Assembly: GCA_049322255.1 (NCBI GenBank)
Contig: JBMORE010000133.1
Coordinates: 62,001 to 86,069 of the forward strand
DNA from: Myxococcota bacterium
GTDB taxonomy: Bacteria; Myxococcota; Myxococcia; Myxococcales; Myxococcaceae
DNA: 24,069 bases
Direction of reading: 5' to 3'
Both the position numbers and the translations under genes were made by a program. Numbering within the stretch: the first letter of the stretch is position 1; each line of letters begins with the position of its first letter. The notes under the pieces were generated by a model. That model was not told where the DNA came from, searched no databases, and worked only from the letters and a program-made list of their open reading frames with translations. This document shows, piece by piece, positions 1,446-23,764 of this stretch.

Positions 1446-3158
1446 GTGGCGAACGAGCAAAGCAAGGGACCGGGCCGTGGGCCCGGCGGTGGAAAGGGCC
1501 GTCCCCCTCGGGGCGGCGAGCGCGAAAAACGGCGCGGTAAGGGCCGGGGCGAGCGGGGCGGGCGGGGACGCGACGAGCGACGCGAGGGCCCAGGTGCCGC
1601 TTCCTTCCGCGTCGTCACCGAGCTTTCCACGCTGGAGAAGGCGCTCACCAAAAACGACCTTGCCGCCCAGAAAGCACCGCTGGAGTCGATTCTCAAGGCG
1701 CTCAAGCCGTTGCGCCTTCAGTCGATCGAAAACCTCGACCTCAACACCCGTGGCCGGCTCATCACCAGCCTTTCCCGCGTCAGCCGCCAGCCCAAACCGC
1801 CCGGCTTCGACGAAGCCATCGCGGCAGAGTCGAAGCCCGAGGGCGTCAAAGTGGAGGCCGGGCCCTCCGAAGCGCCGCCGGTAGATGCGGCTCCAGCCGG
1901 AGAAAGGCCCTCCGAGGAGGCAGCTGCGCCCGGCGCCACGCCGGTACCGACAGAGGCTCGAGCGGAGGAGACGCCAGCCGAAGAGGCGGCGGCTGCGCCC
2001 ATTTCGGAGCCGGCGCAGGCTCCGGCAGAAGAAAAGCCGGTGCAAGAGGTGGCTTCGCCCACGTCGACGTCGGCGAAGCCCCCCATCGACGAGAAAATCA
2101 CCGCCTACCAGGACGTGATGTGGCTGGTGGGCGCCATCTGGCGCGCCGTCGGTGAGGAGCAGCGCGCGGCGCTGGCTTTTGCCTCCAGCGGGCGCAAGGC
2201 CGATCGCGCCGAGGCGGTGAAAGTCCTCCACCAAGTGGGCGACTGGCGCGAGGAAGCACGCGTTCTCGCCGAGCAGGGCCGGACGCGCGACGCCGCCCGC
2301 ATTCATGAACGGCAAAAGTCCTTCGCCGAGGCGGCCCGGCTGTTCGAGCTGGGCAAGGACTTCAAGGGAGCGCTGCGTGCCGCCCTGGCGGGAAAGGACA
2401 CCGACGCCGCCCGCAGGCTCTTGACGCAGCTGTCCCCCGAGGAGTCGCGGCCCCTTCTGGAGAAGGCCGGCGCTTGGGAGCTGCTCATGGAGCGCTACAT
2501 CGAAGCCAAGGACTTCGACAACGTGGCCAAGCTCTACGAGCGGGCACACCAGTTCGACCAGGCTGCCCTCGCCTGGGAGCACGCCGGAAAATACTCCAGC
2601 GCCCGCAAGGCCTACGAGCGTGCCAAGGACCATGCCTCCGCCGCCCGGGTGCGCGAGCTCGAGGTGAGAAAGCTCATCGAGCGTGGAGATCGGCTCGGCG
2701 CCGCGGTGCTCCAGGTGGCAGCGAACGACCGTGCCGGCGCGGTGGCCACCCTTTCGGCGCTGCCCGGCCACAAGGCCTTTCGCTTCATGCAGAAGGCCCG
2801 GCTCGACCAAGAGGCTCTCGCCTTCGCGCGCAAGGAAATCGCCAAGGCCCAGAGCGAGAACCAGCCGGGCGAGATGGCGCGCTGGCTCGAGCTGGTCGGC
2901 GAGGCCTCCGCCGCCGCCGAAGCCTGGGAGAAGGCCGACCGCAAGGACAAGGCGATGGCGATGTACGAGACCGCCGGCAACTGGCAACGCGCCGGCGAGC
3001 TTGCCGAAGCCATCGGTCAGCTGGACAAAGCGGTCGCCCTCTTCCACCGCGCGGGCGACAAGACCAACGCCGAACGCGTGGCTGCGCTGCCCAGACCCGC
3101 ACCAGCGGCCGAGCCCGCTGCGGCGCCGGAGCAAGACGGGGAGCCGGCCGAGGCATAG
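1446..3158 (+). CDS. Uncharacterised alpha-solenoid (TPR/SNAP-like repeat) protein of the G1 gliding cluster
   Basis: GTG start after AAGAGG. Arg/Gly-rich N-terminus, Pro/Ala/Glu-rich linker, then short helical repeats (AARLFELGKDFKGA, AKLYERAHQFDQAA, AMYETAGNWQRA). High GC3 codon usage. Lies between gltH and gltI. Confidence 0.85.
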   Translation: MANEQSKGPGRGPGGGKGRPPRGGEREKRRGKGRGERGGRGRDERREGPGAASFRVVTELSTLEKALTKNDLAAQKAPLESILKALKPLRLQSIENLDLNTRGRLITSLSRVSRQPKPPGFDEAIAAESKPEGVKVEAGPSEAPPVDAAPAGERPSEEAAAPGATPVPTEARAEETPAEEAAAAPISEPAQAPAEEKPVQEVASPTSTSAKPPIDEKITAYQDVMWLVGAIWRAVGEEQRAALAFASSGRKADRAEAVKVLHQVGDWREEARVLAEQGRTRDAARIHERQKSFAEAARLFELGKDFKGALRAALAGKDTDAARRLLTQLSPEESRPLLEKAGAWELLMERYIEAKDFDNVAKLYERAHQFDQAALAWEHAGKYSSARKAYERAKDHASAARVRELEVRKLIERGDRLGAAVLQVAANDRAGAVATLSALPGHKAFRFMQKARLDQEALAFARKEIAKAQSENQPGEMARWLELVGEASAAAEAWEKADRKDKAMAMYETAGNWQRAGELAEAIGQLDKAVALFHRAGDKTNAERVAALPRPAPAAEPAAAPEQDGEPAEA

Positions 3159-6200: not shown

Positions 6201-9200
6201 ACCGCGCGGGAAACCTCTCTTTGCGCCGCGCGCAGCTTCTGGAGGCTTCGCTGGGCGACAAGGCCGAGGCGGTGCGCAAGTACTCGGAGGTACTGGCGCA
6301 GCGGCCCTCCGACCCCGATGCCCTCGCTGCGCTGGAGCACTTGCTCACCGACCCGGTCTGCCGCGAGGAGGCGGCGCGCGGGCTGGTTCCGGCGTACGAG
6401 GCGGTGAAGGAGCACCGCAAGCTGGTGGCGGCGCTGGGGATCATCGCCGACGCCGCGCAGGACTCCCTGGAGAAAGTCCTCGCGCTCAAGCAAGCGGCGT
6501 ACATCCACACCCACCACCTGCGTCAGCCCGACCAGGCGTTCGCCGCTTTGGCCAGCGCGCTGCGCCTGTCGCCCGGGGACGAGGGTGTTCGCCACGCCGC
6601 CCGGGCCGCCGCCGAAGACGCCGACGCTGTCGACCTCTACGCCGAGGTGGTGAGCGAGCTCGTCGATGGGGAAGCCGCTGCTTCGGCCATCGCCCTGCAC
6701 AAGGAGCTGGCCGAGGTCTACGAGAAGAAGCTGAGCAACCGGCCGGCGGCGGTGGAGCAGCTGCGCCGGGTGCTGGGCATCGAGCCGAAGAACGCCGAGG
6801 CCCTCAAGGCCCTGGCCCGACTGCACCGCGCCGACGAGCAGTGGGCGGCGCTCGCCGACGTGTTGGAGACGTTGGCCGCCGTCACCGCCGACCCGGGTGA
6901 GAAGATTGCCCTGTGGCGCGAGGTGGCCACCTTGGCCGATCAACGCCTGGAGGATGTCGAGCGTGCGGCGGCGGCCTTCCGGCAGATCGCCGCCTACGAC
7001 GTGCTCGACCGCGAGGCGGCCTGTGCGCTCGATCGGCTCTACTCCGCGCTCGACAAGCCCAAGGAGCTCGCCTTCGCTCTCGAGCTGCGGCGCAACCAGG
7101 AAGGGCAGAGCCCCCAAGGGCGGGAGCTGGCCTTCCGCTTGGCCCAGCTTCGCCACGACAAGCTCGACGATCAGCCGGGGGCGCTCCAGCTCTACCGGCA
7201 GATTCTGGGGGAGGACCCCGCCCACCAAGGCACCCGCGACACGCTGGAGGTGTGGGCCCGGCAGGCGGCGGCGGAGAGCGGCGCGGCGATGGAGATTCTC
7301 GACCCGGTGCTGGCCCGCTTCGGCGACCACGCCAAGCGCATCGCCTTGCGGGAAGCGCGCATGGAAGCCGCCTCACAGACCGAGCGCGCCCGGCTCCGAA
7401 GCGAGATTCGCGCCATCTTCGAGCGCGATCTCGGCCAGCCTCAGGCCGCCTTCATGGCCGCGCTCAAGGCGTTCACCGAGGGCCTCGATCGTGACTCGAT
7501 TCGGCCCGACCTCGAGCGCCTGGCCCGCGAGACGGGCTCTTTCGAGGACTTGGCGGAGATCTACGAGAGCTGTGCCGGCGAGCTCTTGCCCGGCGACCCC
7601 CAGACGGTGCCGCTCTTGCGCAGGGCGGGGGAGATTCGCGAGCAGCTGGGGCAGTTCGACGACGCGGTGCGCGTGTGGAAGGAGCTCCTCGGCGAAGCGC
7701 CGCAGGACCGGCAGGCGCTCGACGCGCTCTCGCGGCTGTACGAGCGGAGCCACAACGCCAAGAACCTCTCCGAGGTGTACGCGAAGAAGGCGCAGCTGGC
7801 GAGCGACCCCGCCGAGCGGTTGGAGCTGCTCCTCAAAGCCGGGGCGGCGTTCGAAGAGGCGGGGGCGGACGATGCGGCGATCGAAGCCTTCAAGCGCGCC
7901 CACGCGATCAAAAAGGGCGAGGAGTCGCTCGTCGCCCTCGACCGTCTGTTCGGCCGCACGAAGCGTTTTTCCGAGCAGGCCGACGTGCTCGATCAACTGA
8001 CCGAGCTGTCCGCCGACCCCGAGGCCAAGCGCGCCTACGTCTTGCGCCGCGCGCAGCTCTTGGAAAAGGAGGGCCGCGCGGCCGAGGCGATTTCCGCCTA
8101 CGCGATCGCCCTGGAGCTCTTCGCCCAAGAGCCCACCGCCGTCGCCGGGCTGGAGCGTCTGCTCGCCGTCGACCAGGCCAGGCTCGAGGCGGCCCGCCTG
8201 CTCGAACCGCGCTACCGCCAGCAGAACGACCGCAAGAAGCTGGTCGAGGTGCTCGACGTCCGCCTGGGCGCCGCCGACCCCTCCTCGCGCATGCAGCTGC
8301 TCACCGAGGTCGCCACCTTGCGCGAGGCGCTGGGGCAAAAAGCGCTCGCCTTCGCCGCAAGGCTACGGGCCTTCGCCGAACAGCCCGAGGACAAGGAGGC
8401 CCGCGAGGAGCTGGAGCGCCTGGCGGCCGACACCGGGGCGTTCGAAGAGCTCGCCGCCGCCTACGAAGACCAGCTGGAGCGGGGCGTCACCCCTACGCTG
8501 GCGGAGGACCTGTGGCGCCGGCTGGCGGTGGTCTACGGAGATCGGCTCAGCCGCTCCGACCTCGCCGCCCGCGCCTGGGCCGAGGTGCACCAACGAGACC
8601 CCAAGAACCTCTTCGTCCTCGACGCGCTGGCGCGCATCTACCGCAAGACCTCGGCCTTCAAAGACTTGGCGGTGGTGATGAAGAAGCAGATCGCCCTCGA
8701 GCCCAACCTCGAGGCGCAGGTGAACCTGCTCTTCGAGCTCGCCAACCTCGCCGAGGAAACCCTCTCGGACAAAGCGCTCGCGGCGCAGTGCTACCAGGAG
8801 GTCTTGGAGCGCAAGCACGACGACCCCAACGCCATCAAGTTCCTCGGCCGGGTGCTCTTGGAGACGGAACGCTACCCCGAGCTGGCGCAGCTCATCGGCC
8901 GCGAGGTGCAGCTGGCGGAGGGGCGGGGCGCCACCGAAGAGGCCTTCGACCTCATGGTGCGCTTGGGCAGGCTCAAGCTGTCCCGCTTGGGCGATGCGCG
9001 CGGGGCGCTCACCTTGTTTCAGGAGATTTTGCAAAGGCGCCCCGACCATGCCGGCGCGGTGGGTGCGCTGGAGGAGATGGCCCGTTCGGAGAGCAACTTG
9101 CGGGGCGAGGCGGCCACCGCCCTCGAGCCGGTGTTCGCTCACCACGGCGACCACCTCAAGCTGGTGCAGATGCTCGAGTCGCGCGCCTCGGCGGAGACGG

Positions 9201-12200
9201 TGCCCCAGGAGCGCGCCGCCCTGTGGCGCAAGGTCGCCGAGCTGTACGCCACCACCCTCGCCAACCCGGAGATGGGCTTCGTCAACGCCACCCGCGCGTT
9301 GCGCGAGGTGCCCGACGACGAGCGCTCGCTGGCGCTGTGCCTACAGCTGGTGGGCGCCGCCGACGCCTCCGACGAGCTGGCCGAGCTTCTGATGGAAGTC
9401 GCCCAGAAGGCTTCGGAGGACAAGGCCCGCGCCGCGCTCTACCGGACGTTGGCGAAGCTGCAGGTGGAGCGAGCCGAGCACGACGAGGCGGTCGAGAGTT
9501 GGAAGCGGGTGCTGGAGGTGCTCCCCAGCGATCCCGAGGCGCTCGACGCCATCGGCCGGCTGTTGGGCAAGCAGAACAAGGTGCCCGAGCTCTTGGAAAT
9601 CCTGCGCCGGCAGCTCTCCACCACCGAAGAGCCCGCGCGCCGCGCGAACCTCTTGTTTCAGATCGGGTCGCTGCAGGACGAGCACCAAAAAGACGCCATG
9701 GGGGCGCTGGCCACCTTCCGCCGCCTGCTCGAGCTTCGCCCCGACGACGCGCTGGCGCTTTCGCGCATGGACCAGCTGTGCGAAGAGCTGCAACGCTGGC
9801 CGGAGCTGGCCGACGTTCTTGCCAAGCGAATCTCACTCGCAGTCACCGACCCCAGCGTCGAGCTCAAGTTTCGCCTCGCCCAGGTGCGCGAGCTCAAGCT
9901 GTTGGACAAGGTGGGCGCGCTCGATCTCTACACCGAGATCCTCGCGCTGCAGCCGCAGCACCCCGGCGCCATCGGCCGCATGGAGGCGATCGCCGCCCGC
10001 GAGCCGCAAAACCAGGCCGCCGTCGACGTCTTGATGCGGGCCTACCGCGCCAACGGCGACCTCGCCAAGCTCGCCCAGCTCATCGAGGCGCGGGTGGCGG
10101 TGAGCGCCGACGCCTGGGAGCGCAAGACGTTGCTCTCCGAGCTGGCCACCTATCGCGAGACGCAAGAAGAGCCCGAGCTCGCTTACCTCGCGTTGTGGCG
10201 CGCGTACAAAGAAGACCCCAACGACGCCGACCTGCGCACCCGCCTTCAGCGCGCCGCCGACGCCGCCAAGGCCTACGACGAGCTGGCGACGGCCTACGAA
10301 GAAGAGCTGCCGCGCATCGCCGAGGCCGCCGACGCCGCCGAGGTGTGTCTGACGCTGGGCTACCTCTTCGACCAGAAGCTCTCCGAGCCGGAGAAGGCCG
10401 CCGCCTATTACGAGAAGGCCCGCGCGCTCGACCCCGCGGTGTGGAGCCGCGCGCTGCCCGCCCTCGATCGGCTCTACAACGTCATCGACAAGCCGGTGGA
10501 GCTGGCCGCGGTGCTCGAGGCGCTCGCCGCGCTCACCAGCGAGCCGCAGGAAAAGGTGGGGCTGCTCTTCCGTCTGGGGCAGCTGGCGGTGGAGCGGCTC
10601 GACAGCCCCGACCGCGCCGCCGCCGCGCTGGAGAAGATTCTCGAGCTCGCCCCCGACCATCTGCCCTCGGCGCGCCTGTTGGAGACGCTCTACGAGGCCG
10701 CGGGCCACCACGACAAGCTCTACGCCATTCTGGAAACGCAGCGCGACCTGGTCACCGGCCCAGAGAAAGAGCGCATTCTTTCCAAGATGGCGATCGTCTC
10801 GGCCGAGGGCCTGTCGGACGTCTCGCACTCCATCGAGCTCTACCGCGAGCTGCTCACCAAGAACCCGCGCAACGAGCAGGCCTTCGCCGCGTTGGACACG
10901 CTGCTCGAGCGCGGCGGCCGCTTCGAGGAGCTCAAAGGGCTTTTGGAGACGCGCGTGTCGCACACCATCGACCCGCGCGAGCTGGTGCGGCTCAACGATC
11001 GGCTGGGCCGGGTCGTTGGCACCATGCTCGACCGGCCGGAGGAGGCGATCGCCTACTTCAAGGCGGCCCTCGAGCGCGACGCGCGCCACAAGGGGGCCCT
11101 GGAGGCGCTCCAGGAGATCTACGAGAAGCTCGACCGCCCCGACGACCTGGTGATCGTCCTGCGCCGCCTGGTACCGCTGCAGGAGGGTGCCGAGGGGGTG
11201 AAGGCGATTCGCCTGCGTCTGGCCGAGGTGCTCGCCCAGATGAACCGCCGCGAGGAGGCGCTCGACGCCGCCCGCCGCGCCTTGGAGATCGAGCCGCACA
11301 ACCTCGCCGACTTGAACCGCGTCTTCGCCGTCTTCGACGAGCTTCGGGCGTACGGCGATGCGGTGCGTGCGCTCGAGCTGCGCGCGCAGGTCGAGCTGGG
11401 TCTGGAAGATCGTGAAGCGGCGGTGGCGACGCTCGTTCAGGTGGCCGACGTGTGGCGCGGGGTGGGGAACAAGCCGGAGGGCGCCGGCCCTGCGCTGGAG
11501 AAGGTGCTGGAGATCGACCCCGCCAACCGTTCTGCCTATGAGCAGACGACCGCGCTGTACTCTCAGGTCAACGACTGGCGCGCCTACGCACAGGTGGTCG
11601 ACCGGTACCTGCCCCACCTGGTCACCGACGAGGAAAAGCTGTCTGCCTTACGCGAGCTGGCCCGGGTGCAGGAGCAGAAGCTCGGGCAGAAAGACGTGGC
11701 CTTCCTCGCCATCTGCCGCGCGCTTCAGCTCAACCCCTCCGATCACACCATTCGCGAGGAGGTGGAGCGGCTGGCGGAGGACACCGGTTCGCACGAAGAG
11801 CTCGCCGCCGTCTACGAGGAGGTCGCCGACGGGCTGCCCCGAGGCCCACTGGCCGAGCGCATCTACCTGGTGCTGGCCAAGGTACACGACGAGAAGCTCG
11901 ACGACCCGGCCGCCGCCGAAGCGTCGCTGCGCAAGATTCTCGAGTTCGACCCCACCAACGAGCTCGCCCTCGACGCACTGGCAGGCATGTTCAGCCGCCG
12001 CGGGCGCGACAAGGAGTACGTGGTCTCGCTGGAGCAGAAGCTCGAGGCCGCAGGGTCGATAGAGAAGCGCAAGGAAATCTTGCGGGAGATCGGCCGGGTC
12101 TTCGACGAGCGCCTGGGAGACCCGCGCGAGGCCGCCTCGGCGCTCCTACGCGCGCTCGAGCTCGAGCCCGACTTCCAGACCCTCGACGAGCTGAGCGCGC

Positions 12201-15200
12201 TCTACCGGCGGCAAAAGGACTTCGCCAACGTCGCCGCCACGCTCTTGCGCGGGCGCGATTTGGCCCCCACCCCCGAGGAGCGCAGCCGCTTCCAGGCCGA
12301 AGTGGCGCAGGTCTACGAACGCGATCTGGCGGACGACGAGGCGGCGATCGACGCCTACCGGCAAGCGCTGGAGTTCGACCCCGCCAACAAGGTGGCCCTC
12401 GACGCCCTCGAGCAGCTCTACACCAAGCTCGATCGCCCCGCCGAGCTGCTCGCCGTCTACGAGCGGCAGCTCGAGCTGTCGCAAGACTGGCGCGAGCGGG
12501 TGAAGGTGCTCTTCAAGAGCGCCTCCATCTGGGAGGACCGCTACCAAAATCTGGGCAACGCCGACGCCTGCATCGAGGGCGTGCTCTCGATGGACCCGCA
12601 AAATCTCCAGGCGATCAAGACCCTGGAGCGGCTGCGCCGGGCGCAGGAGCGCTGGGAGGAGCTGATCGGCGTCTTGGGCCGCCACATCGAGCTGCTCACC
12701 CAGCCCGCAGAGCAGGCCGAGCTGTTCGTGGAGGTGGGCGACACCTACCACCAGCAGCTCAAACAGGTGGACCGCGCGGTGCAGGCCTATCACCAAGCGC
12801 TCGAGCTCAACCCGCGGTGCCGGTTGGCGATTCACGCCTTGGGCACGCTCTACGAGCGCAGCGGCAACTGGCCCTTCGCGTTGGACATGCTGCAGCGCGA
12901 GGCGCAGGTGGCCGGCACTACCGCCGACGCGGTCGAGCTGTACCACCGCATGGGGAAGATCAACGAGGACATGCTCCTCGACCCTGGCAGCGCCAAGGCC
13001 TGCTACCAGGATGCGCTGAAGATCAACCCGGGGTACCTACCGTGCATTCGCGCCCTCAAGGGCATTTACGAGATCGAGAAGGACTGGGGGGCCTTCGAGC
13101 GCGCGCTCGTGCAAGAAGCCGAACAGACCGAGGACCCCGAGGCGAAGAGCCGCGCGATGCTCGAGGTGGCGCGCTACCACGCCGAGTCCAAAGACGACCG
13201 CGACGCCGCCACCTCCTGGTACGAAGAGGCCTTGCGGCTGGTGCCCGACTCGTTCGACGCCGCCCGCCCGCTCGCCGACATCTACATCGCCAAGGAGAAT
13301 TGGGAAGGCGCCGAGAGAATGCTGGACATCGTCGCGGTCAAGATGGCCGAGCGCGCGGTCGACCAGCAGGACGAGCAGCTGGCCAAGGACCTCTGCCGCC
13401 AGCTCTACCGGCTGGGCTACGTCGCCGAGAAGCTCTCCAACAAAGACAAGGCGCTCAAGAGCTACGAGAAGTCCTACCAGCTCGACGCCACCTACCTGCC
13501 CGCGCTCGAGGGGCTGGGCAACCTCCTGGTGCAGGCCGGCCGCCACGAGGAGGCGCTCAAGGTCTACTCGACCATTCTCATTCACCACCGCGACGACCTC
13601 ACCGACCTCGAGGTGGTGGAGATCTATTGGCAGCTGGGTGACATTCACCTGGCGCTGCAGCAGCTCGATCGCGCCCAGAACCACTTCGAAAAGGCGCTGG
13701 CGATCGACCCCACGCACGAGCCGTCGTTGCGCTCGCTCGTCAAGCTCGCCGACGGCGCTCAGAAGTGGGACCGGGCCGCCGAGTACCGCCAGAGCCTCAC
13801 CCAGGTGCTCGACGGAGAGGCCAAGTTCGCCGTCTGCCTGGAGCTGGGCCAGCTCGCCCGCGAAAAGCTCGCTGATGCCTACATGGCGATCGACGCCTAC
13901 CAGGCGGCGCACAAGATCGACCCCGCCTCGCTCGAGGTGATGGACGCGCTCTACGTCCTCTACCGCGAGACCAAACAGGGAGTGAAGGCCGCGGAGGTCC
14001 TGGAGAAGATGCTCGCGCAGCCCTCGCTGCAGGCCGACCCGCAGAGGGCCAAGAGAGTCTACTTCGCCCTGGGAGAGATGTGCCGCGACGAGCTCAAGGA
14101 GGTCGACCGCGCGGTGGTCGCCTTCAATGCCGCCCTCGACGCCGACTTCCGCTTCATCGAGGCGTTCAGCGCGATCGAGGCGCTGTTGGGCCAGCACAAG
14201 CAGTGGAAGGTGCTGGAAGAGAACTACGCCCGCATGGTGCAGCGCCTGCCCAAGACCGAGGAGACGCACACCGCCCGCATGAGCCTGTGGCGCGCGATGG
14301 GTGACCTCTACCTACGGGTGATGAAGAACCCCGAAGGGGCCCTGATGGCTTACCAGGTGGTGGCGGCGGGGCTCCCCGACGACTCCTCGGTGCAGGAGGC
14401 CTACGCCGAGCTCGCCGCTGCGCACCCAGGCCATGAGGAGAAGGCGATCGCCGCCTATCGCCGCGCGCTGACACAGACCGGAAACCCCGGCAAGGTGGCC
14501 TCGGCGCTCGCCGAGCTCGCCGCCCGCCGCAAAGACTACGACTCGGCGTGGCTCGCCGCCCAAGTCTCCAGTGGACTGATCGGGCAGGCTGGGCCCGGAG
14601 AGCGCGAGATTCTCACCAAGCTCACTCCCTACGCGAAGAAGAAGGAGGTCGCTTCGCGCGCGCTCACCGACCGGCTGTGGCAGAGCCACCTGTTCCATCC
14701 CAAAATCCGCGGGCCGATCTCCGAGCTGATGGCCATCCTCTTCGAGCAGGCGGGGCACCTGTACCATGAGGACTTCGCCAAGTACCAAATCAACCCGCGC
14801 AAGCACCTCATCGACGTCGCCTCGGCCCAGGAGTACCAGATCCACCACTTCCGCTACGTGGCCCGCCTGTTGGGCATGGAGCAGGTGGCGCTCTTCTCGC
14901 CGTTCTTGGTGGCCACCCGCGAGCGGCTGGCGAAGCGCTCGAGCGAGCCGGCGCCGGAGCCGATGGTGGGCGTCGAGATCTGCCACACGCACCCGGTGGC
15001 GCTCAAAGTCGGCGGAAAGTTCTTCTCCGAGACCGGGCAGAAAGAGACCTACTACCTCTTGGGACGCACGATGGCGCTCTTACGCCCCGAGCTGGCGCTC
15101 TCCCATCAACTGCCCGCGCAGCGCCTGGAAGCCGTCTTTCAGGCGGCGATCAGCCTCTCGGTGAACACCTTCCGCTTCAGCGCCGACCCGCGCGCCATCG

Positions 15201-15529
15201 ACACCGAGCGGCGGGCGTTGGAGAAGGCCTTGCCCGAGCAGGCGCGGGGCGCGCTCGCCCGCGTCACCCGTGAGTACGTCAAGGCCGCGACTCCCCAGGA
15301 CTTGCGCAACTACCTCGAGGGCGCCGAGCTCTCCGCGGTGCGCACCGGCCTGTTCGTCGCCGGGGAGATCGAACCGGTGAAGAAGATGGTGCTGGGAGAG
15401 AGCGGCGCCGCCTATCGCGTGCAGGCACGCTCGAAAATCCGCGACTTGATGGTCTTTGCCCTCTCCGAAGACCTACATGCCCTCCGGGTGGCGGTGGGCA
15501 CCCACGTCGAGGTTCAGGTTCGGCGATAG
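3248..15529 (+). CDS. gltI: Giant TPR-repeat gliding motility protein GltI (AgmK)
   Basis: 4093-aa uninterrupted ORF with dozens of TPR-like units (A...Y..AL..DP.N..AL..L..LY). No signal peptide. Lies directly upstream of gltJ, as in the M. xanthus G1 cluster. Confidence 0.9.
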   Translation: MASNETRAQRGPEDKPFVEMEASLEKSGRVEELIRLYESRSHEVPSADEAAHLLSLAGELARDRLKNHARAEELYRRALGAQPASREALDGLRALYEQRQDFAALAEVLERLASLIGGAMAASLYLKAADLHEQKLSRRDRAVLCCQRASRAEPKERLSFRRARVLFLAEGRTRPAFDSLERERAALGDREMAEEYIAFAEQLQDDPTEQGVALQALDIALKLDPKNPRAEKAQKAIGKLEHEWRSRVRDLRAASLEERDRKTAARLSLLVAKLNAWYDSEAKGKVKEALDRCFLLWPAMPDALTFVEKLAEKEGDFTSAAKQLEKMAAAAKDKPAQVDLWLRLGTLELSRLNPPDRAAALAAFEKATKLDPSRADAASLAAELFIEESRGKDAVAVLEAHLATVKDQHTRVGLHLRLADLCQLHLKDEAGARAHLESALKLEPANAQAAFRLARIFADAGELAHLWPLMELAVTAPRPVSERVAFCENVAMLFDEAEEAGKAFEALALALVLEPERPMLLSSTLESAKKASAEQALAVTLRRAALVASPEAATALWRSLAQLCESPLSRPDEAEGAWLEVLKHAPGDPAATEALAALKRSTADGEPTEPRAKLLAEAKKLEASAADPAAAAAVYRQLLTLQPDDVPTLKRLGSAAAALSQWEEVATVAERLMALAETLPERQEWRCRLAQLYAERLARKEEAARLYLNLLAEGIASAAVVGGLERLASEGVRQGDISKALAPHYAKGGDYQRQVASLLVQLSTVQGKEEQKGLLSLLADTSEKHLLDSRGAFDFRLRGLTVDPADSAFRAEAVRLARFLSAHAELGRFLLELGGKVADAGLAASLMQEAAELAEEGGAIDDAATALKAALDKSADHPEILARLVQLYLRAHRFADCDQVLRRRILVAETEEKPSLYLQLAEVNAELSRPREAAQAILEAIKAGADEEENLPRLSQLLEQGGRLGELSDVLGRMIELAEQKGDKDRAGNLSLRRAQLLEASLGDKAEAVRKYSEVLAQRPSDPDALAALEHLLTDPVCREEAARGLVPAYEAVKEHRKLVAALGIIADAAQDSLEKVLALKQAAYIHTHHLRQPDQAFAALASALRLSPGDEGVRHAARAAAEDADAVDLYAEVVSELVDGEAAASAIALHKELAEVYEKKLSNRPAAVEQLRRVLGIEPKNAEALKALARLHRADEQWAALADVLETLAAVTADPGEKIALWREVATLADQRLEDVERAAAAFRQIAAYDVLDREAACALDRLYSALDKPKELAFALELRRNQEGQSPQGRELAFRLAQLRHDKLDDQPGALQLYRQILGEDPAHQGTRDTLEVWARQAAAESGAAMEILDPVLARFGDHAKRIALREARMEAASQTERARLRSEIRAIFERDLGQPQAAFMAALKAFTEGLDRDSIRPDLERLARETGSFEDLAEIYESCAGELLPGDPQTVPLLRRAGEIREQLGQFDDAVRVWKELLGEAPQDRQALDALSRLYERSHNAKNLSEVYAKKAQLASDPAERLELLLKAGAAFEEAGADDAAIEAFKRAHAIKKGEESLVALDRLFGRTKRFSEQADVLDQLTELSADPEAKRAYVLRRAQLLEKEGRAAEAISAYAIALELFAQEPTAVAGLERLLAVDQARLEAARLLEPRYRQQNDRKKLVEVLDVRLGAADPSSRMQLLTEVATLREALGQKALAFAARLRAFAEQPEDKEAREELERLAADTGAFEELAAAYEDQLERGVTPTLAEDLWRRLAVVYGDRLSRSDLAARAWAEVHQRDPKNLFVLDALARIYRKTSAFKDLAVVMKKQIALEPNLEAQVNLLFELANLAEETLSDKALAAQCYQEVLERKHDDPNAIKFLGRVLLETERYPELAQLIGREVQLAEGRGATEEAFDLMVRLGRLKLSRLGDARGALTLFQEILQRRPDHAGAVGALEEMARSESNLRGEAATALEPVFAHHGDHLKLVQMLESRASAETVPQERAALWRKVAELYATTLANPEMGFVNATRALREVPDDERSLALCLQLVGAADASDELAELLMEVAQKASEDKARAALYRTLAKLQVERAEHDEAVESWKRVLEVLPSDPEALDAIGRLLGKQNKVPELLEILRRQLSTTEEPARRANLLFQIGSLQDEHQKDAMGALATFRRLLELRPDDALALSRMDQLCEELQRWPELADVLAKRISLAVTDPSVELKFRLAQVRELKLLDKVGALDLYTEILALQPQHPGAIGRMEAIAAREPQNQAAVDVLMRAYRANGDLAKLAQLIEARVAVSADAWERKTLLSELATYRETQEEPELAYLALWRAYKEDPNDADLRTRLQRAADAAKAYDELATAYEEELPRIAEAADAAEVCLTLGYLFDQKLSEPEKAAAYYEKARALDPAVWSRALPALDRLYNVIDKPVELAAVLEALAALTSEPQEKVGLLFRLGQLAVERLDSPDRAAAALEKILELAPDHLPSARLLETLYEAAGHHDKLYAILETQRDLVTGPEKERILSKMAIVSAEGLSDVSHSIELYRELLTKNPRNEQAFAALDTLLERGGRFEELKGLLETRVSHTIDPRELVRLNDRLGRVVGTMLDRPEEAIAYFKAALERDARHKGALEALQEIYEKLDRPDDLVIVLRRLVPLQEGAEGVKAIRLRLAEVLAQMNRREEALDAARRALEIEPHNLADLNRVFAVFDELRAYGDAVRALELRAQVELGLEDREAAVATLVQVADVWRGVGNKPEGAGPALEKVLEIDPANRSAYEQTTALYSQVNDWRAYAQVVDRYLPHLVTDEEKLSALRELARVQEQKLGQKDVAFLAICRALQLNPSDHTIREEVERLAEDTGSHEELAAVYEEVADGLPRGPLAERIYLVLAKVHDEKLDDPAAAEASLRKILEFDPTNELALDALAGMFSRRGRDKEYVVSLEQKLEAAGSIEKRKEILREIGRVFDERLGDPREAASALLRALELEPDFQTLDELSALYRRQKDFANVAATLLRGRDLAPTPEERSRFQAEVAQVYERDLADDEAAIDAYRQALEFDPANKVALDALEQLYTKLDRPAELLAVYERQLELSQDWRERVKVLFKSASIWEDRYQNLGNADACIEGVLSMDPQNLQAIKTLERLRRAQERWEELIGVLGRHIELLTQPAEQAELFVEVGDTYHQQLKQVDRAVQAYHQALELNPRCRLAIHALGTLYERSGNWPFALDMLQREAQVAGTTADAVELYHRMGKINEDMLLDPGSAKACYQDALKINPGYLPCIRALKGIYEIEKDWGAFERALVQEAEQTEDPEAKSRAMLEVARYHAESKDDRDAATSWYEEALRLVPDSFDAARPLADIYIAKENWEGAERMLDIVAVKMAERAVDQQDEQLAKDLCRQLYRLGYVAEKLSNKDKALKSYEKSYQLDATYLPALEGLGNLLVQAGRHEEALKVYSTILIHHRDDLTDLEVVEIYWQLGDIHLALQQLDRAQNHFEKALAIDPTHEPSLRSLVKLADGAQKWDRAAEYRQSLTQVLDGEAKFAVCLELGQLAREKLADAYMAIDAYQAAHKIDPASLEVMDALYVLYRETKQGVKAAEVLEKMLAQPSLQADPQRAKRVYFALGEMCRDELKEVDRAVVAFNAALDADFRFIEAFSAIEALLGQHKQWKVLEENYARMVQRLPKTEETHTARMSLWRAMGDLYLRVMKNPEGALMAYQVVAAGLPDDSSVQEAYAELAAAHPGHEEKAIAAYRRALTQTGNPGKVASALAELAARRKDYDSAWLAAQVSSGLIGQAGPGEREILTKLTPYAKKKEVASRALTDRLWQSHLFHPKIRGPISELMAILFEQAGHLYHEDFAKYQINPRKHLIDVASAQEYQIHHFRYVARLLGMEQVALFSPFLVATRERLAKRSSEPAPEPMVGVEICHTHPVALKVGGKFFSETGQKETYYLLGRTMALLRPELALSHQLPAQRLEAVFQAAISLSVNTFRFSADPRAIDTERRALEKALPEQARGALARVTREYVKAATPQDLRNYLEGAELSAVRTGLFVAGEIEPVKKMVLGESGAAYRVQARSKIRDLMVFALSEDLHALRVAVGTHVEVQVRR

Positions 15530-15665: not shown

Positions 15666-17645
15666 ATGATGCGCTTCGTCTGTGACAGCTGCCGCGCGCA
15701 GTACATGATCAGCGACGAGAAGGTCGGCGCCAAGGGCGTCAAGGTTCGCTGCAAGAAGTGCGGGTTCGTCATCCTGGTTCGGCGCGCCGAAGCGGCCATC
15801 GCGGCGCCCCCGCCCGACCCCGACGACGGCATGGCGACCCAGGTGATGCAGCTGCCCATCGGGGCGCCGCCCAACTTCGACCCCGACGCCACCAGCCCCA
15901 ACGTCCACGCTCCCAAGGCGAAAGGCCCCTTGGGCGCGGTGGGCGAGGACGAAATCGGCGCGGTGTTCGACCAGGTGCTCAACTCCGGCACGCACGGGCT
16001 CCCGGAAGAGGAAAACGGCGCCGCCAAGCCTGCCCCTTCCACGCTGGACGACGACGACGACGACGACGATCGCCAGAGCACCCGCATTCTCGACCCGGAC
16101 ATGGTGAAGAAGCTCGCCTTGGAGGCGGGTGCAAGCGCCAGTGAGGCGGCTGCGAAGCCCACCAATGGGGAGGAGCCCTCTCACGATTGGTTCGTCGCCA
16201 TCGACGAAAAGCAAGTCGGGCCGGTCTCGGTGGAGAAGCTCAAGGACCACTGGAACCGCGGGGAGATCGGCCCAGACTCGTTGTGCTGGCGGGCGGGGTT
16301 CTCCGACTGGTTGCCTCTCTCCGAGGTCGCCGAGCTGACTTCGGTGCTGGCCCCGCGGCCCGCCAAGCCCGTCATCGTCGCCCCGGCCCCTGCGGCCGCG
16401 GTGGTCTCGGTACCGATCGAGAGTGCCTTCTCCGCCGGAGGAGTCGCCAAGAGCGTGCGCGGGGAGATGCAGGTGCCGCTGGCCGCCGCCCCCGTCGAAG
16501 AGACCTCCGGTGGGTGGAAGCCCTCGGCCGCTTCGGCACTTGCCTCGCTGGCGAAGGAGGAGATCGCAGCGCTGACCCGGCCCCCGTCCAAGGCGTCCGA
16601 GCCGGCGCATGGAGAGGACGTGCCGCTTCCCATGGCAGGCGGGTTGCTCGACCTGCCCGCGGCGGAGGAAAAGCCCGCTGGCAACGGCAAGCACAACGGC
16701 GCGCATGCGGCGCCGGCGATCGCCGAGCGGCCAGTGGCCAACCCGTACGTCGCGCCTCCGCCGACGTATAGCTCTCCGGGGTACTCGACCTACAGGCCGC
16801 CTTCGCGCAACAACCTGCTCATTGGCTTGGCGATCGGCGGGGCGGTGCTGGTGCTGGGGCTCATCACCCTCATCGTGTACCTCCTCGTTCGGCAGCCGGT
16901 GTACGTGCAGCCGCCGGTGCCGAGTCAGCCGGTGGCGGTGGCTCCGCCCGTGCAGCCAGCGCAGTCGGCCGTCACTCCGCCTTCCGTGGCCACTCCGCCT
17001 GCTGCGGTTGCTGCGCCGCCTGCCGCTGCTCCGCCGACATCGCCTCAGCAGCCTGCGGCTTCCCCCACCCCCATCAAGTCCACGGCCCAACCCGGGGAGC
17101 GCCCGCCGGTCAAGTCGCCGCGCACCATCTCTGGAGGCCGCGACAGCTCGGGCGGGGGCAGCGAGATCATCGCCCCTCCCAAGCAACCGGATAGGCCTGC
17201 CCCTAGCGGCGGACGCGGGGGTGACGAGGACGATTTCTGCAAAGAGTTCGGTGGGTGCGAGAAGACCGAACCCTCCAAAACCAGAGAGCCATCTGGAGGT
17301 GGCAGAGGCAATTCGCGGTCGGTCTACGTCCCGCCCGCGCCCGGCTCAGGCGGCGACCTTCCCGAGAAGCTCAACGAGTCCGACATCTTTCAGGTGGTGT
17401 TGGGGAACAAACCCGCGCTGGTTCGCTGTGTCGAAGAGCAGCGTAAGAAGGAACCCGGTGTCTCCGGCACCCTGATGATGCAGTGGACCATTCAGACCAA
17501 TGGCAGAACCTCGAACGTGCGGGTGCTCACCGACGAGTTCAAGAACAGCTACATGGCCACCTGCATGGGTGGGCTGATCAAAAGGTGGAGCTTCCCCAAG
17601 CACCGGGCGCAAGGCGAACCGGTGAAGTTCCCGTTCAAGTTCTGA
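15666..17645 (+). CDS. gltJ: Adventurous gliding motility protein GltJ (AgmX): zinc ribbon, GYF_2 domain, TM helix, TonB-C-like domain
   Basis: N-terminal MRFVCDSCRAQYMISDEKVGAKGVKVRCKKCG zinc ribbon. GYF_2 motif WFVAIDEKQVGP...LCWRAGFSDWLPLSEV. One TM helix (LLIGLAIGGAVLVLGLITLIVYLLV), a Pro-rich stalk and a C-terminal ...IKRWSFPKH...VKFPFKF. Start may be the ATG at 15669. Confidence 0.92.
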   Translation: MMRFVCDSCRAQYMISDEKVGAKGVKVRCKKCGFVILVRRAEAAIAAPPPDPDDGMATQVMQLPIGAPPNFDPDATSPNVHAPKAKGPLGAVGEDEIGAVFDQVLNSGTHGLPEEENGAAKPAPSTLDDDDDDDDRQSTRILDPDMVKKLALEAGASASEAAAKPTNGEEPSHDWFVAIDEKQVGPVSVEKLKDHWNRGEIGPDSLCWRAGFSDWLPLSEVAELTSVLAPRPAKPVIVAPAPAAAVVSVPIESAFSAGGVAKSVRGEMQVPLAAAPVEETSGGWKPSAASALASLAKEEIAALTRPPSKASEPAHGEDVPLPMAGGLLDLPAAEEKPAGNGKHNGAHAAPAIAERPVANPYVAPPPTYSSPGYSTYRPPSRNNLLIGLAIGGAVLVLGLITLIVYLLVRQPVYVQPPVPSQPVAVAPPVQPAQSAVTPPSVATPPAAVAAPPAAAPPTSPQQPAASPTPIKSTAQPGERPPVKSPRTISGGRDSSGGGSEIIAPPKQPDRPAPSGGRGGDEDDFCKEFGGCEKTEPSKTREPSGGGRGNSRSVYVPPAPGSGGDLPEKLNESDIFQVVLGNKPALVRCVEEQRKKEPGVSGTLMMQWTIQTNGRTSNVRVLTDEFKNSYMATCMGGLIKRWSFPKHRAQGEPVKFPFKF

Positions 17646-17860: not shown

Positions 17861-18937
17861 ATGCAGTTCAATCGAATCGGATATCTGCTGGCCGCCGGTG
17901 GCCTGGCTGCCTTCGCGGTTGCCTGTGGAGAAGGTGGAGGTGACAACACAGGCGCATGCAGCAGCGACTCGCAGTGCCTGACCGGCGAAATCTGTCACCC
18001 CGTCGCCAAGCAGTGTGTGCAGACGTGTACCGCCGGTGCCGACTGTCCGGACAGCGCGAAAAACTGCGCACCCATTGGTGGCGCGGGCTCGTCCGACGCG
18101 GGCACGGCCCCTGACGGCGGCACCACCGGCGGCACCAAGATTTGCCAGTGCGCCACCACCCAGCTGTGCAACAGCGGCAGCGCCGGCGGCTCGCTGGTGT
18201 GCAACAACGAATCGAAGGTTTGCGAGGTGAAGTGCACCAATGACTCCGGGTGCTCGGGCGGGCGCAAGTGCGACACCGCCACCGGCGAGTGCAAGACCGC
18301 GGCGCCGGTGGGCTGCACACCTGCCTGCACGGGCAACCAGGTCTGCGACACCTCGATGAACATGTGCATGGACAGGTGCACCACCGGCAGCTGCGCCAGC
18401 GGGAAGACCTGCAACGTCTCCACCGGCGTGTGCGAGACGGCGGGAACGTGTAACGCCGCCAACGCCCAGCCCGACACCTGCGCCTACGGCCAGTACTGCA
18501 GCACGGGCACCTGCGCCGACGTGGCGCCGAAGCCGACCTGCGCCAACTTCACCTCCGGAGCGACCATGGCGACCTGGAACGCCGCCACCGACACCGGCCC
18601 GATCATCTTCAGCGTGCAGAAGATCTCTCAAGACTCTACCTGGTGCTCGGGGGGCGTCGACCCGGACAACATCCGCATCACGGTGAAGGCCTACAACAAG
18701 AACGGTACCTTCCCGGCGCAGCTTTCAGCGCTCCAGGGTTTCTTCTACGTCAAGGTCAACGGAGACACCGTCGACGCCACCACCCTGGCCCGGCCGACAT
18801 CGGGGTTCAGGCAGATGCAGGGAGGCAAGGAGGCCGAGTTCGACCTCAACTTCTGCGTGGCGACCAACATCAACAGCATCTCGATCGGCCTGAAGTTCAC
18901 GGGCGGCAACGAGGTGTGCCAGCAAGTCGCCAAGTAG
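17861..18937 (+). CDS. Cys-rich lipoprotein with EGF-like disulfide repeats (358 aa)
   Basis: True start is most likely the ATG at 17861 (GGAGGA SD), not 17741. Signal peptide MQFNRIGYLLAAGGLAAFAVA-C ends in a lipobox. Repeated C-x-x-D-x-x-C-x-x-G-x-x-C and CDTATGEC/CNVSTGVC units precede a beta-rich C-terminal domain. Confidence 0.88.
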   Translation: MQFNRIGYLLAAGGLAAFAVACGEGGGDNTGACSSDSQCLTGEICHPVAKQCVQTCTAGADCPDSAKNCAPIGGAGSSDAGTAPDGGTTGGTKICQCATTQLCNSGSAGGSLVCNNESKVCEVKCTNDSGCSGGRKCDTATGECKTAAPVGCTPACTGNQVCDTSMNMCMDRCTTGSCASGKTCNVSTGVCETAGTCNAANAQPDTCAYGQYCSTGTCADVAPKPTCANFTSGATMATWNAATDTGPIIFSVQKISQDSTWCSGGVDPDNIRITVKAYNKNGTFPAQLSALQGFFYVKVNGDTVDATTLARPTSGFRQMQGGKEAEFDLNFCVATNINSISIGLKFTGGNEVCQQVAK

Positions 18938-19096: not shown

Positions 19097-19609
19097 ATGC
19101 GACAGACGATGAAGTGGTTGGGCTTGTCGATGGCGATGGTGCTTCCGGCGATGGCGCTGGCGGGGGAGGTGATGGTGCCGATGACCAAGGGCCCCGGTGG
19201 CAAGCTGATTCTGAAATGTCCAACAGGGACCCAGCAGATGGGTGGTCCCCAATCTCCGCTCGAGGCGACGCTGTGCGTCAAGCTCGACAAGAGAGGGAAC
19301 CGCGTCTTTCACGGGCCTTACGTGGTGCAGTACGCCGACGGAAAAATTCAGTCGATGGGGCAGTACGAGAACCACTTCCGCTCGGGCCGCTGGGCGTTTT
19401 TTGACGCGGACGGGCGCAAGACTGGCGAGACCGAGTTCACCCGGGGCGACTACAACGGCCAGCGCATCGAGCTCTACCCCAACGGAATGAAGAAGCTCGA
19501 AGAGCGCTGGGTGATGGGTCGCCGCCAGGGCGAGGTGAAGAGCTGGGACGAGAAGGGCCAGCTCACCGTGGTGCAATACAAGGACGACAAGCCCATCGCC
19601 CTGCGCTGA
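19097..19609 (+). CDS. Secreted MORN-variant repeat (YwqK-like) protein
   Basis: ATG at 19097 after GAAAGGG (alternative ATG at 19109). Signal peptide ends ALA-GE. Repeats HGPYVVQYADGKIQSMGQY, SGRWAFFDADGRK, NGQRIELYPNGMKK and QGEVKSWDEKGQL. Confidence 0.8.
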   Translation: MRQTMKWLGLSMAMVLPAMALAGEVMVPMTKGPGGKLILKCPTGTQQMGGPQSPLEATLCVKLDKRGNRVFHGPYVVQYADGKIQSMGQYENHFRSGRWAFFDADGRKTGETEFTRGDYNGQRIELYPNGMKKLEERWVMGRRQGEVKSWDEKGQLTVVQYKDDKPIALR

Positions 19610-19666: not shown

Positions 19667-20788
19667 GTGAAGCCGATGCTCCAACCCGCCGAGCCGCTCC
19701 TGCCCGACCTGCCGGTGCGCACGGTGGCGCAGATGGGGCTCAAGGAGCTCGAGCGCATTCGCCTCATCTTGCGCGGGGGCTCGGTCATCGAGTGGCGGCG
19801 GCTGCACTTCCAGACACGCGAGGAGGTCGACCGCTTCTTGCGCCTGTGCCAGGTCGATCCTTCCAACCCGCACGACGAGGCGTGGGTGCGCACCATTCTC
19901 GCCGACGCGGTGGAGTACCTGCGCAAGACCTTCAACTACCGGGTGGCCGAAGCGGTCGCTGCGCCCAAGGAGGTTCACGACCTCTTTCTCTACGCCTCGG
20001 GGGCGAAGCCGCCCAAGCGCCTGCGGAAGATTGCCTGCATCGTGCTCAAGGTGATGCACGTCATTCAGCACATCGAGGGGCGCGACCTCTTGTTCAAGGT
20101 GCCGGTGTCGGAAGCCGAGCTCAGCCAGATGGTGTCGGAGAAAGTGCTGCGGGTCGCCGAGGAGATGAAGGCCAAGGGTCTGCCGATCGTCGAGTTCGCC
20201 GACTCGATCAAGACGCGCGAGTCGATCGTCACCAAGCTCTTGGCGAAGAAGGAGACGGTGGCGGCGCAGATTTACGATCGCACCCGCTTTCGCATCGTCA
20301 CTCGACACAAGGAAGACGTGCTCCCGGTGCTGTACTTTCTCACCCAGCGGCTCTTCCCCTTCAACTTTCTGGTGCCCAAGCAGACCGAGAACACGCTCCT
20401 CGCCTTCAAGGAGCTGGTGAAGGAGAACGCTCACTTCGCGCGCTACGCGGAGGACCTGCACCTCGATTTGGACTACGAAGATCGCGAGCGGCGGCGGCCG
20501 GGAAACGAGTTCTCCGGCAGCGGGTACAAGATTCTCAACTTCGTGGTCGACGTGCCCTTGAGGCTCGACGCGTACCTGCCGCCCCCCGAGCAGGATTTCC
20601 GCCCGCGCAAGGGGCGCATCGTCTTCTCGCTGGTCGAGTTCCAGATCGCCGATGAGGAGACGGCGAAGAGGAACGAGGCGGGTGAGAACTCCCACGAGCG
20701 CTACAAGGAGCGGCAGAAGAAACAGGTCTTGCGGCGCCTCTCGCGGGGGCTGGTGGTGCCCAAGCGCGCCCGAAAGTCTCCACGCTGA
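19667..20788 (+). CDS. TIGR04552-like protein with a RelA/SpoT-type nucleotidyltransferase domain
   Basis: N-terminal LILRGGSVIEW..LHF segment is recalled from this myxobacterial family. The C-terminal half has SIKTRESIVTK, YDRTRFRIV, SGYKILN, EFQI and SHERYK in the order of RelA/SpoT synthetase motifs. Confidence 0.85.
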   Translation: MKPMLQPAEPLLPDLPVRTVAQMGLKELERIRLILRGGSVIEWRRLHFQTREEVDRFLRLCQVDPSNPHDEAWVRTILADAVEYLRKTFNYRVAEAVAAPKEVHDLFLYASGAKPPKRLRKIACIVLKVMHVIQHIEGRDLLFKVPVSEAELSQMVSEKVLRVAEEMKAKGLPIVEFADSIKTRESIVTKLLAKKETVAAQIYDRTRFRIVTRHKEDVLPVLYFLTQRLFPFNFLVPKQTENTLLAFKELVKENAHFARYAEDLHLDLDYEDRERRRPGNEFSGSGYKILNFVVDVPLRLDAYLPPPEQDFRPRKGRIVFSLVEFQIADEETAKRNEAGENSHERYKERQKKQVLRRLSRGLVVPKRARKSPR

Positions 20789-20842: not shown

Positions 20843-21400
20843 ATGCCCTCGCCCTGGCCGGTGAGTACCTTTCCGAGCGTGACGACCTTGCGACGGCTTT
20901 TGGCGTACGACCAGGCGTTGCTCCTCCGGGTGCACCGCTGGCAACGTCCGTGGATCACCCGGGTGATGAGCGCGGCGACCCACCTGGCCGATCCGCAGAG
21001 CTGGGTAGTGCTTGGCGTCGCCTTGGCTGCGAGCGGCACGCCGACCGGAGAGAAGCTCGCCTTGCGCTTGGCGTGGGGCGCAGGCGGGGCGGCGCTGGTG
21101 GCGCAGCTCATCAAGCGGTTGAGCCGCCGCAGCCGGCCTGATGCAGGCATCGCCGACTTCAAGGCGCTCGCGGTCAACCCCGACGCGTATTCGTTTCCCT
21201 CGGGTCACACGGCGGCCACGGTGGCGGTGGCAGTGGCTTGGACGGGGCAGGGCAACGGGCTGGGAGGTCTTGCCGCAGCGCTCTCCGCGCTGGTCGGGTT
21301 CTCCCGTGTCTACCTGGGCGCGCATTACCCGCTCGACGTGTTCGCGGGGGCCCTCTTGGGGACGGCGTTGGGGGCGGCGGCGCGGGTGGTGGTGCCGTAG
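20843..21400 (+). CDS. PAP2-family membrane phosphatase
   Basis: All three PAP2 motifs are intact: KRLSRRSRP (KX6RP), SFPSGH and SRVYLGAHYPLD (SRX5HX3D). Several hydrophobic helices. Confidence 0.92.
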   Translation: MPSPWPVSTFPSVTTLRRLLAYDQALLLRVHRWQRPWITRVMSAATHLADPQSWVVLGVALAASGTPTGEKLALRLAWGAGGAALVAQLIKRLSRRSRPDAGIADFKALAVNPDAYSFPSGHTAATVAVAVAWTGQGNGLGGLAAALSALVGFSRVYLGAHYPLDVFAGALLGTALGAAARVVVP

Positions 21401-21411
21401 CGTCTGGCGCC

Positions 21412-23058
<1,647 letters not shown>

Positions 23059-23681: not shown

Positions 23682-23764
23682 GCACGAGTGGCGAAACAGG
23701 TAGACGCAGCGGACTTAAAATCCGCAGGCCCAAAGCCATCCGGGTTCGAATCCCGGCTCGTGCA
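23682..23764 (+). tRNA. tRNA-Leu(TAA); CCA not encoded
   Basis: Acceptor stem GCACGAG/CTCGTGC plus discriminator A, D arm TGGCGAAACAGGTAGACGC, anticodon arm GCGGA-CTTAAAA-TCCGC, long variable arm and T arm CCGGG-TTCGAAT-CCCGG. Confidence 0.97.

Follow-up and report, generated by a model that had tools for sequence, protein, structure and literature searches.

The window, that is the whole 24,069-nt stretch of myxobacterial DNA that was analysed, carries a G1 gliding cluster with gltG, cglE/gltH, gltJ (HMM), a gene for a giant TPR protein, a lipoprotein-like gene and a MORN-repeat gene; the gene of the TIGR04552 family that is the subject of this study forms the tail of the cluster (Table 1). 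A scan for promoters and terminators at the locus found nothing above chance. The frame of the gltG gene, which ends at position 713 of the window, is 1015 aa long, contains a run of N and holds the C-terminal half of gltG twice (L162:9667-12714); this may be a tandem duplication or may have arisen in the assembly. A gene for a 570-aa TPR/clathrin-repeat-like protein, with a basic, low-complexity N-terminus and without an NCBIfam name, separates cglE/gltH from the giant TPR gene. On the other side, ffh converges on the cluster and is also found near the gene in 59 of 80 related loci, and a tRNA gene lies at the end of the window.

Table 1. Features of the locus, in window coordinates; residue numbers refer to the 373-aa TIGR04552-family protein.
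Feature	Position	Strand	Basis and remarks
Gene for 570-aa TPR/clathrin-repeat-like protein	1446-3158		
4093-aa TPR protein, gltI/agmK	3248-15529	+	named by size and position; no specific HMM match
gltJ (agmX), gliding focal-adhesion protein, upstream	15666-17645	+	NF033761, 605.7 bits (cut-off 450)
Cys-rich lipoprotein-like gene	17861-18937	+	positional equivalent of MXAN_4860; putative start codon
Exported MORN-repeat protein	19097-19609	+	positional equivalent of MXAN_4859; ends 57 nt before the TIGR04552 gene; putative start
TIGR04552-family gene	19667-20788	+	GTG start, 373 aa; alternative start ATG 19676
Family-specific helical N-terminal domain, ~residues 20-147	19724-20107	+	models and conservation
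RelA/SpoT synthetase-fold domain, residues 148-353	20108-20725	+	structure and profile matches
β1/basic helix of putative donor site: S180 (canonical Arg lost), K182, S186, K190, K194	20204-20248	+	
β2: D204 (Mg ligand position), R/K205, new R207 (canonical Gly/Ala), R209	20276-20293	+	
Rebuilt acceptor side: P237-x-Q/E239 (canonical PGR), N280-E-F-S283, Y287 kept, I289/N291 replacing S/H of YxSxH	20375-20539	+	
E324-x-Q326-x2-D329 and N336-E-x-G339-x3-H343-x2-Y-K-x-R-Q350	20636-20716	+	
PAP2-family membrane phosphatase	20843-21400	+	54 nt downstream of the TIGR04552 gene
ffh (SRP54)	21412-23058	-	
tRNA-Leu(TAA)	23682-23764	+	

The database copy of the protein (P0001) begins three codons later than the frame used here, at the alternative ATG, and has 370 aa. 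The protein belongs to both TIGR04552 (408 bits; cut-off 125) and TIGR04562 (362 bits; cut-off 140), while Pfam RelA_SpoT (PF04607; 25.7 bits, E 1.4e-5, residues 181-349) narrowly misses its cut-off of 27. The five motifs in RelA/SpoT (RSH) order that an initial annotation of this DNA had pointed out are all present in the frame: S180-I-K182-x3-S186-x3-K190, D204-R-T-R207-F-R209, Y287-K-I-L-N291, E324-F-Q326-I-A-D329 and H343-x2-Y346-K347. The TIGR04552, TIGR04562 and PF04607 scores, together with an AlphaFold model whose best matches are RSH enzymes, indicate that this likeness is greater than chance. HMM searches of the 373-aa protein with the HD, TGS and ACT families gave no match at E up to 1, in agreement with the annotated lack of a TGS/ACT region; the long-Rel model TIGR00691 scores 14.5 bits where 499 are required, and 373 aa leave no room for C-terminal domains. 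The protein is a common one, matched by 2462 of 8000 scored candidates; a homologue survey at E up to 0.001 comprised 791 representatives at 50% identity, with 150 among the matches listed. The window copy is an ordinary member of a catalogued, widespread myxobacterial family, and nothing distinguishes it. The family had been described as lacking an assigned function, and a search of the openly accessible literature indeed yielded no biochemical characterisation of TIGR04552, TIGR04562 or the M. xanthus member MXAN_4858. Judged by titles and the opening of abstracts, the Bdellovibrio papers listed for RelA/SpoT and ppGpp hold nothing on the TIGR04552 family; the Bdellovibrio sp. NC01 member DOE51_RS08710 appears in a mutation table (PMC9888234).

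For structural comparison, the query was aligned with 75 full-length representatives (from 150) and 57 of 120 close homologues; the resulting AlphaFold model of the whole protein has a pLDDT of 93.3 and a pTM of 0.90. When the model was compared with 48,161 PDB representatives (VIA), the 11 best rows were all RSH synthetases, with Z scores of 13.7-7.2. The best match is B. subtilis Rel (8acu; Z 13.7, rmsd 2.9, 131 aligned), followed by RelP (12.7 and 12.1), RelQ (12.5), RelA, SpoT, CapRel (7.8) and Tas1 (7.2); other nucleotidyltransferase folds begin at Z 7.0 in the same comparison, and FaRel2 scores 5.9. Foldseek also returned RelP, RelQ and Rel as best matches (E 3e-6). The structural check proposed in the initial annotation thus found an RSH synthetase fold, which spans residues 148-353. 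A divergent family profile searched against PDB sequences gave six matches, all six to RSH enzymes, and when profiles were compared, the match to the synthetase domains of five long Rel proteins had a probability of 89 (E 2.2e-6); a PDB search with the query as a single sequence gave no significant match. The C-terminal motif segment aligns without gaps to the EVQIRT...AAHWxYK segment of long Rel and has the same motif spacing. This points to an origin from long Rel, and the protein was probably derived from the synthetase domain of such an enzyme.

The region that precedes the synthetase fold had been described as helical, about 170 aa long and devoid of an HD hydrolase motif. The lack of an HD match holds, but helix 149-169 already belongs to the part that aligns with the synthetase fold, which leaves a shorter separate domain of about 147 aa. 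Folded alone, the N-terminal domain reaches a pLDDT of 88.9. Its conserved residues are G37-S39-x2-D42-W43, K128 (449/449), H131 and H135, and in the model and 449 homologues the invariant K128 shares one long helix with the conserved H131, H135 and R139. The K128-x2-H131-x3-H135 spacing resembles the KLAD..N helix of Rel. The domain model has no Foldseek match at E 0.001, and the best structural score (RbcX, a helical pair, Z 5.9) is not above background. The fold searches list no RSH hydrolase and the domain is not recognisably HD, an absence that is not proof of a new fold. This domain probably gates the activity or chooses the acceptor.

To map the active site we relied on FaRel2, whose ATP residues are R64, K66, S70, K74, R77, D90, G93, R95, E145 and Q147, and whose Y128 contacts the acceptor base, as described in PMC11782079; equivalent residues are used for ATP and Mg by RelP (PMC5794853). 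HMM alignments to RelP/YwaC and RelSeq map the FaRel2 sites to S180, K182, S186, K190, K194, D204, R207, R209, Y287, E324 and Q326, with K194 one residue off in the HMM alignment. A direct MAFFT alignment to Rel was misaligned because of an insertion, and the mapping therefore rests on the HMM and profile alignments and on a divergent member, P0474, that is discussed below. Conservation was counted over 449 full-length sequences, 73 fragments having been dropped from a set of 522. Lys is found at 182 in 445 of these and at 190 in 445 (with Arg in another four), S186 in 437, D204 in 445, R209 in 439, Tyr or Phe at 287 in 447, E324 in 446 and Q326 in 443. The eight ATP, Mg and base-stacking positions, including Y/F287, occur together in 432 of the 449 sequences, and in 93 of 105 after thinning to <60% identity. 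Non-conservation of the D, E and K residues, named in the initial annotation as evidence against its reading, was not seen at D204, E324, K182 or K190.

The initial annotation had placed the substitutions on the acceptor side; the R-to-S change at position 180 actually lies on the ATP-donor side. Arg is found at this position in none of the 449 sequences, and Ser, Gly or Asn takes its place in 445. Since the canonical β1 Arg of FaRel2 touches adenine, ribose and phosphates (PMC11782079), its loss could cripple catalysis, and taken alone the lost donor-site Arg argues against activity. It is, however, probably offset by R207: Arg occupies position 207 in 445 of the 449 sequences and in all 77 full-length members of a further set of 80 metagenome homologues, where the canonical enzymes compared have Gly or Ala. 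Couplings 157-208, 157-181 and 153-179 (effective number of sequences 202) tie strand residues 179, 181 and 208 to residues 153 and 157 of a helix, which places 180 and 207 on the same open face; the β1-β2 register is ambiguous in the couplings (sums 384-387), which do not fix it exactly. We suggest that the adenine-stacking Arg has probably moved from β1 (180) to the neighbouring β2 (R207), compensating for the loss. A large Arg at the Gly position of the adenine pocket could also block ATP binding rather than rescue it.

That the acceptor pocket is changed, as had been annotated, is borne out by HMM and profile alignments at positions 239, 283, 289 and 291. The Arg of PGR (position 239) is Gln or Glu in 430 of 449 sequences and the Lys of the G-loop (position 283) is Ser or Thr in 446. 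Position 289 is mostly Val, Ile, Ala or Met and position 291 is Asn in 369 and His in 36, so that YxSxH becomes Y-x-[VIAM]-x-N. An insertion of ~35 aa (246-279) precedes the G-loop, which is the least certain part of the mapping, the hhalign alignment being offset there. Further on, ExQIRT has become ExQxxD (D329 in 448/449), and N336 is new (446/449). New basic residues (R/K205, R207, R299 and R349) might restore a GDP pocket by another route. The divergent member P0474 (L163:11842-13059) has H180, G207, R239, S289 and H291, with Ser at 336, in query numbering. It is near-canonical at exactly these sites, which supports the position mapping and suggests that the family has two subtypes, a myxobacterial one and a near-canonical one, the latter known from this one sequence. 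According to the account of toxSAS enzymes in PMC11782079, the tRNA-modifying FaRel2 is set apart from alarmone synthetases by the smaller basic patch of its acceptor site.

The host genome, which is 99.6% complete, has one copy of the gene and one canonical Rel of 728 aa, and no match to a separate RSH hydrolase. Matches are present in 304 of 355 Myxococcota genomes (a tally that includes two weak matches and one unpublished genome, G225) and in 164 of the 170 genomes of the host's family, mostly one in each; in 53 genomes without a match or with a weak one, no protein exceeds the TIGR04562 cut-off. Plasmids, IMG/VR and PADLOC gave no match, and neither did a metagenome scan with a single divergent protein as the query. 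The one match in a phage collection was rejected, as it lies among fabI, glyS, secDF and scpAB and has the look of a bacterial chromosome, not of a genuine phage. The record in question is GenBank MW495066.1, 'Microcystis phage MaAM05' (274 kb), in which the stretch 111573-136628 (L163) carries the TIGR04552 homologue surrounded by fabI, engB, glyS, gatD, secD/F, acpS and scpA/B. Members of the small family f19 (L156 and L157, genomes G311 and G313) have lost several otherwise invariant catalytic-site residues, a loss visible in the closely grouping P0240, and their branch is long; they are possible natural pseudoenzymes.

The gene order of the window recurs widely. Among 80 close loci, kept of 105 and with contig ends counted as misses, gltJ lies upstream in 61, the Cys-rich lipoprotein gene is present in 71 and the MORN gene in 60. 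The PAP2 phosphatase, considered as a 'make-and-break' partner, was discarded, being present in none of the 80. In a set of 49 distant loci, hand-picked to span 25 other families of the phylum, gltJ is upstream on the same strand in 30, and in several of these the GltJ match ends as little as 3-30 nt away. Another metagenome scan found gltJ near the gene in 24 of 32 loci of one group and in 0 of 48 of another clade. No conserved small antitoxin-like partner gene was seen in the close or the distant loci. The protein does not strictly co-occur with GltJ: all 17 genomes of family f11 contain GltJ matches (end to end in at least 10) but no TIGR04552-family member over the cut-off, and genomes G116 and G117 have the TIGR04552 gene with GltJ matches that are only domain-sized. 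The link to gltI-gltJ is old and frequent, not obligatory; kin loci are not independent, and gene order may have been passively retained.

Other arrangements are seen as well. In the metagenomic clade without gltJ (L198-L225) the commonest neighbour is mfd, with the gene often divergent from an unannotated gene of ~370-450 aa that is followed by mfd, and with a matrixin-like gene downstream. One further clade (L148, L149, L151, L153, L155, L160) has the gene not with glt genes but among rpsT, murJ, mazG, mutS, an amidase gene and, in two loci, glnD. In G116 (L123:3127-6971) a canonical long rel is followed by cglE/gltH and then by the TIGR04552 gene, all on the same strand. GltJ itself binds MglA-GTP, AglZ and MglB (PMC11135422); the text passages and one supplement of that paper make no mention of the TIGR04552 protein. 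A complex prediction with GltJ residues 1-230 scored 0.00, which speaks neither for nor against pairing.

The M. xanthus locus has the same gene order as the window. Its member MXAN_4858 (WP_011554841.1) is annotated as TIGR04552 in the supplementary tables of PMC6791715, where its expression is flat at 51-103 RPKM from 0 to 96 h of development, next to 84-117 for gltJ and 51-124 for relA; it is lower in csgA (log2 -2.39) and fruA (-1.34) mutants in a supplementary table of PMC11980068. A BarSeq preprint (10.64898/2026.08.28.747804) describes MXAN_4858 insertions as behaving like glt mutants in development, with a modest defect, and cites an earlier insertion without an overt motility effect (Pathak and Wall 2012); its passages on the gene do not note the likeness to RelA/SpoT. 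Polar effects of these insertions on the glt genes are not expected, since those genes precede MXAN_4858 on the same strand. The 2011 RSH survey has an unclassified 'SYNTH[S]' entry, YP_633016.1, as a third, synthetase-only RSH of M. xanthus DK1622 (PMC3153485 Table S1), and the 2020 update has an unclassified 'Rel[S]' entry for M. xanthus (PMC7229694 dataset); unclassified entries appear for Sorangium too (PMC3153485, PMC7229694). The M. xanthus SYNTH is absent from the 30 subgroups in the 2011 main text (PMC3153485), and the type does not appear for Bdellovibrio or Anaeromyxobacter among the survey rows listed. YP_633016.1 is probably MXAN_4858, since the accession spacing relative to RelA fits.

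We favour, at slightly short of an even chance, the view that the protein is an active ATP pyrophosphotransferase with an acceptor other than GDP or GTP. It would be a constitutively made, non-toxic, stand-alone RelA/SpoT-fold enzyme in which D204 and E324 hold Mg, K182, S186, K190 and K194 hold the triphosphate of ATP, and the adenine is held between R209 and the migrated R207. Pyrophosphate would be passed to the 3'-OH of an acceptor stacked on Y287. Since the protein has other residues where alarmone synthetases carry their basic and guanine-side ones, this acceptor would lack either a 5'-di- or triphosphate or the guanine that GDP and GTP have; the likeliest candidates would be a nucleotide of the adenosine type or with a 5'-monophosphate, or else the 3' end of an RNA. 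The canonical Rel already in the genome supports such a reading, and so, by analogy, may FaRel2, where the basic patch of the acceptor site is lost and the activity is not that of an alarmone synthetase. Steady expression without an antitoxin suggests that the activity is low or gated, perhaps through the N-terminal domain.

Much of the same evidence can also be read as that of a dead or very weak pseudo-synthetase that binds ATP, GTP or (p)ppGpp and serves as a sensor or adaptor, plausibly at the cytoplasmic gliding machinery. The β1 Arg is absent in 449 of 449 sequences, Gly/Ala of the adenine pocket has become Arg, the acceptor residues are lost, expression is flat with no antitoxin, the gene stands directly behind gltJ in many families, and the fitness described for the mutants is glt-like. 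We nevertheless consider this doubtful, as the metal-binding and catalytic carboxylates and Q326 are almost invariant down to ~30% identity, which exceeds what pseudoenzymes usually show, and as the loss of R180 with the gain of R207 looks compensatory. We regard it as unlikely that the protein is a divergent but otherwise conventional small alarmone synthetase that supplements Rel with a locally regulated supply of (p)ppGpp or pGpp. Against this, relA mutants of M. xanthus are reported to make no starvation-induced (p)ppGpp (Harris 1998), although they retain MXAN_4858; in its favour, the closest structures are Rel, RelP and RelQ (Z 13.7-12.1), not toxSAS (CapRel 7.8, Tas1 7.2, FaRel2 5.9), Y287 is retained, and YRSLH, the Arg of PGR and the Gly of DxxGxR are all still present in the related subtype P0474. 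It is hardly credible that the protein serves as a toxSAS-type toxin in a defence or toxin-antitoxin module and carries its antitoxin fused to it as the N-terminal domain: the gene is near-universal and mostly single-copy (164/170 genomes of the family) in a housekeeping/motility region, it has no conserved small partner and no PADLOC, plasmid or genuine phage match, and the insertion mutants are described as resembling motility mutants, even though the reduced acceptor patch resembles that of tRNA-targeting toxSAS and CapRel provides a precedent for a fused toxin-antitoxin protein (PMC11782079).

If the protein is a pyrophosphotransferase with a non-GDP/GTP acceptor, its activity may tune gliding-dependent behaviour, because the gene travels with gltI-gltJ in most Myxococcota. 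For a functional tie of the protein to gliding, whatever its chemistry, we see the chances as about evenly balanced. A more specific idea is that the Myxococcota branch is a housekeeping, RelA/SpoT-derived pyrophosphotransferase with a migrated catalytic Arg and a new acceptor. Its product, either a new nucleotide signal or a 3'-pyrophosphate added reversibly to a target, would influence the focal-adhesion cycle of the Agl-Glt machinery, for instance through the MglA GTPase switch at GltJ; this is speculation and distinctly improbable. To our knowledge, RSH synthetases have so far been found to make (p)ppGpp, pGpp and (p)ppApp and to pyrophosphorylate tRNA, and the chemistries other than alarmone synthesis come from toxins. 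Here, a core, steadily expressed, non-toxin RSH-fold protein is present in the tractable M. xanthus, with a developmental phenotype described in the BarSeq preprint. Should it make a new product, myxobacterial biology would gain a signal or modification; should it be a pseudoenzyme, a new nucleotide sensor would stand close to the gliding machinery. A signal for motility would couple nucleotide status to gliding and developmental aggregation, and would make the protein the first RSH enzyme for motility rather than for stress or toxicity. New here are the proposed Arg migration, a second subtype that is near-canonical, the linkage with gltI-gltJ and the tie to M. xanthus data; the initial annotation was silent on R207, on this gene order, on the gene being core and mostly single-copy, and on the published M. 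xanthus expression and mutant data.

Compared with known systems, the protein shares with Rel, RelP and RelQ the fold (Z 13.7, 12.7, 12.5, 12.1) and the K/S/K, D, R, Y and E-x-Q residues. It differs from them in the lost β1 Arg and the gained β2 Arg, in ExQxxD for ExQIRT, in the invariant N336, in the altered PGRFK, G-loop Lys and YxSxH, in the insertion of ~35 aa before the G-loop, and in a new N-terminal domain of ~147 aa. Unlike long Rel, it has no HD, TGS or ACT match. Of the toxSAS enzymes, FaRel2 and CapRel pyrophosphorylate tRNA CCA, and Tas1 and FaRel make (p)ppApp. With these the protein has in common that the donor-site residues and the aromatic residue of the G-loop are kept and the acceptor side is altered; in contrast to them, the TIGR04552 gene is core, vertical and without an antitoxin partner, and FaRel2 keeps the β1 Arg and the β2 Gly (PMC11782079). 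Judged by sequence, the protein thus falls outside the RelP/RelQ-type small alarmone synthetases, the long RSH enzymes and the toxSAS modules alike, with a donor half that looks like theirs.
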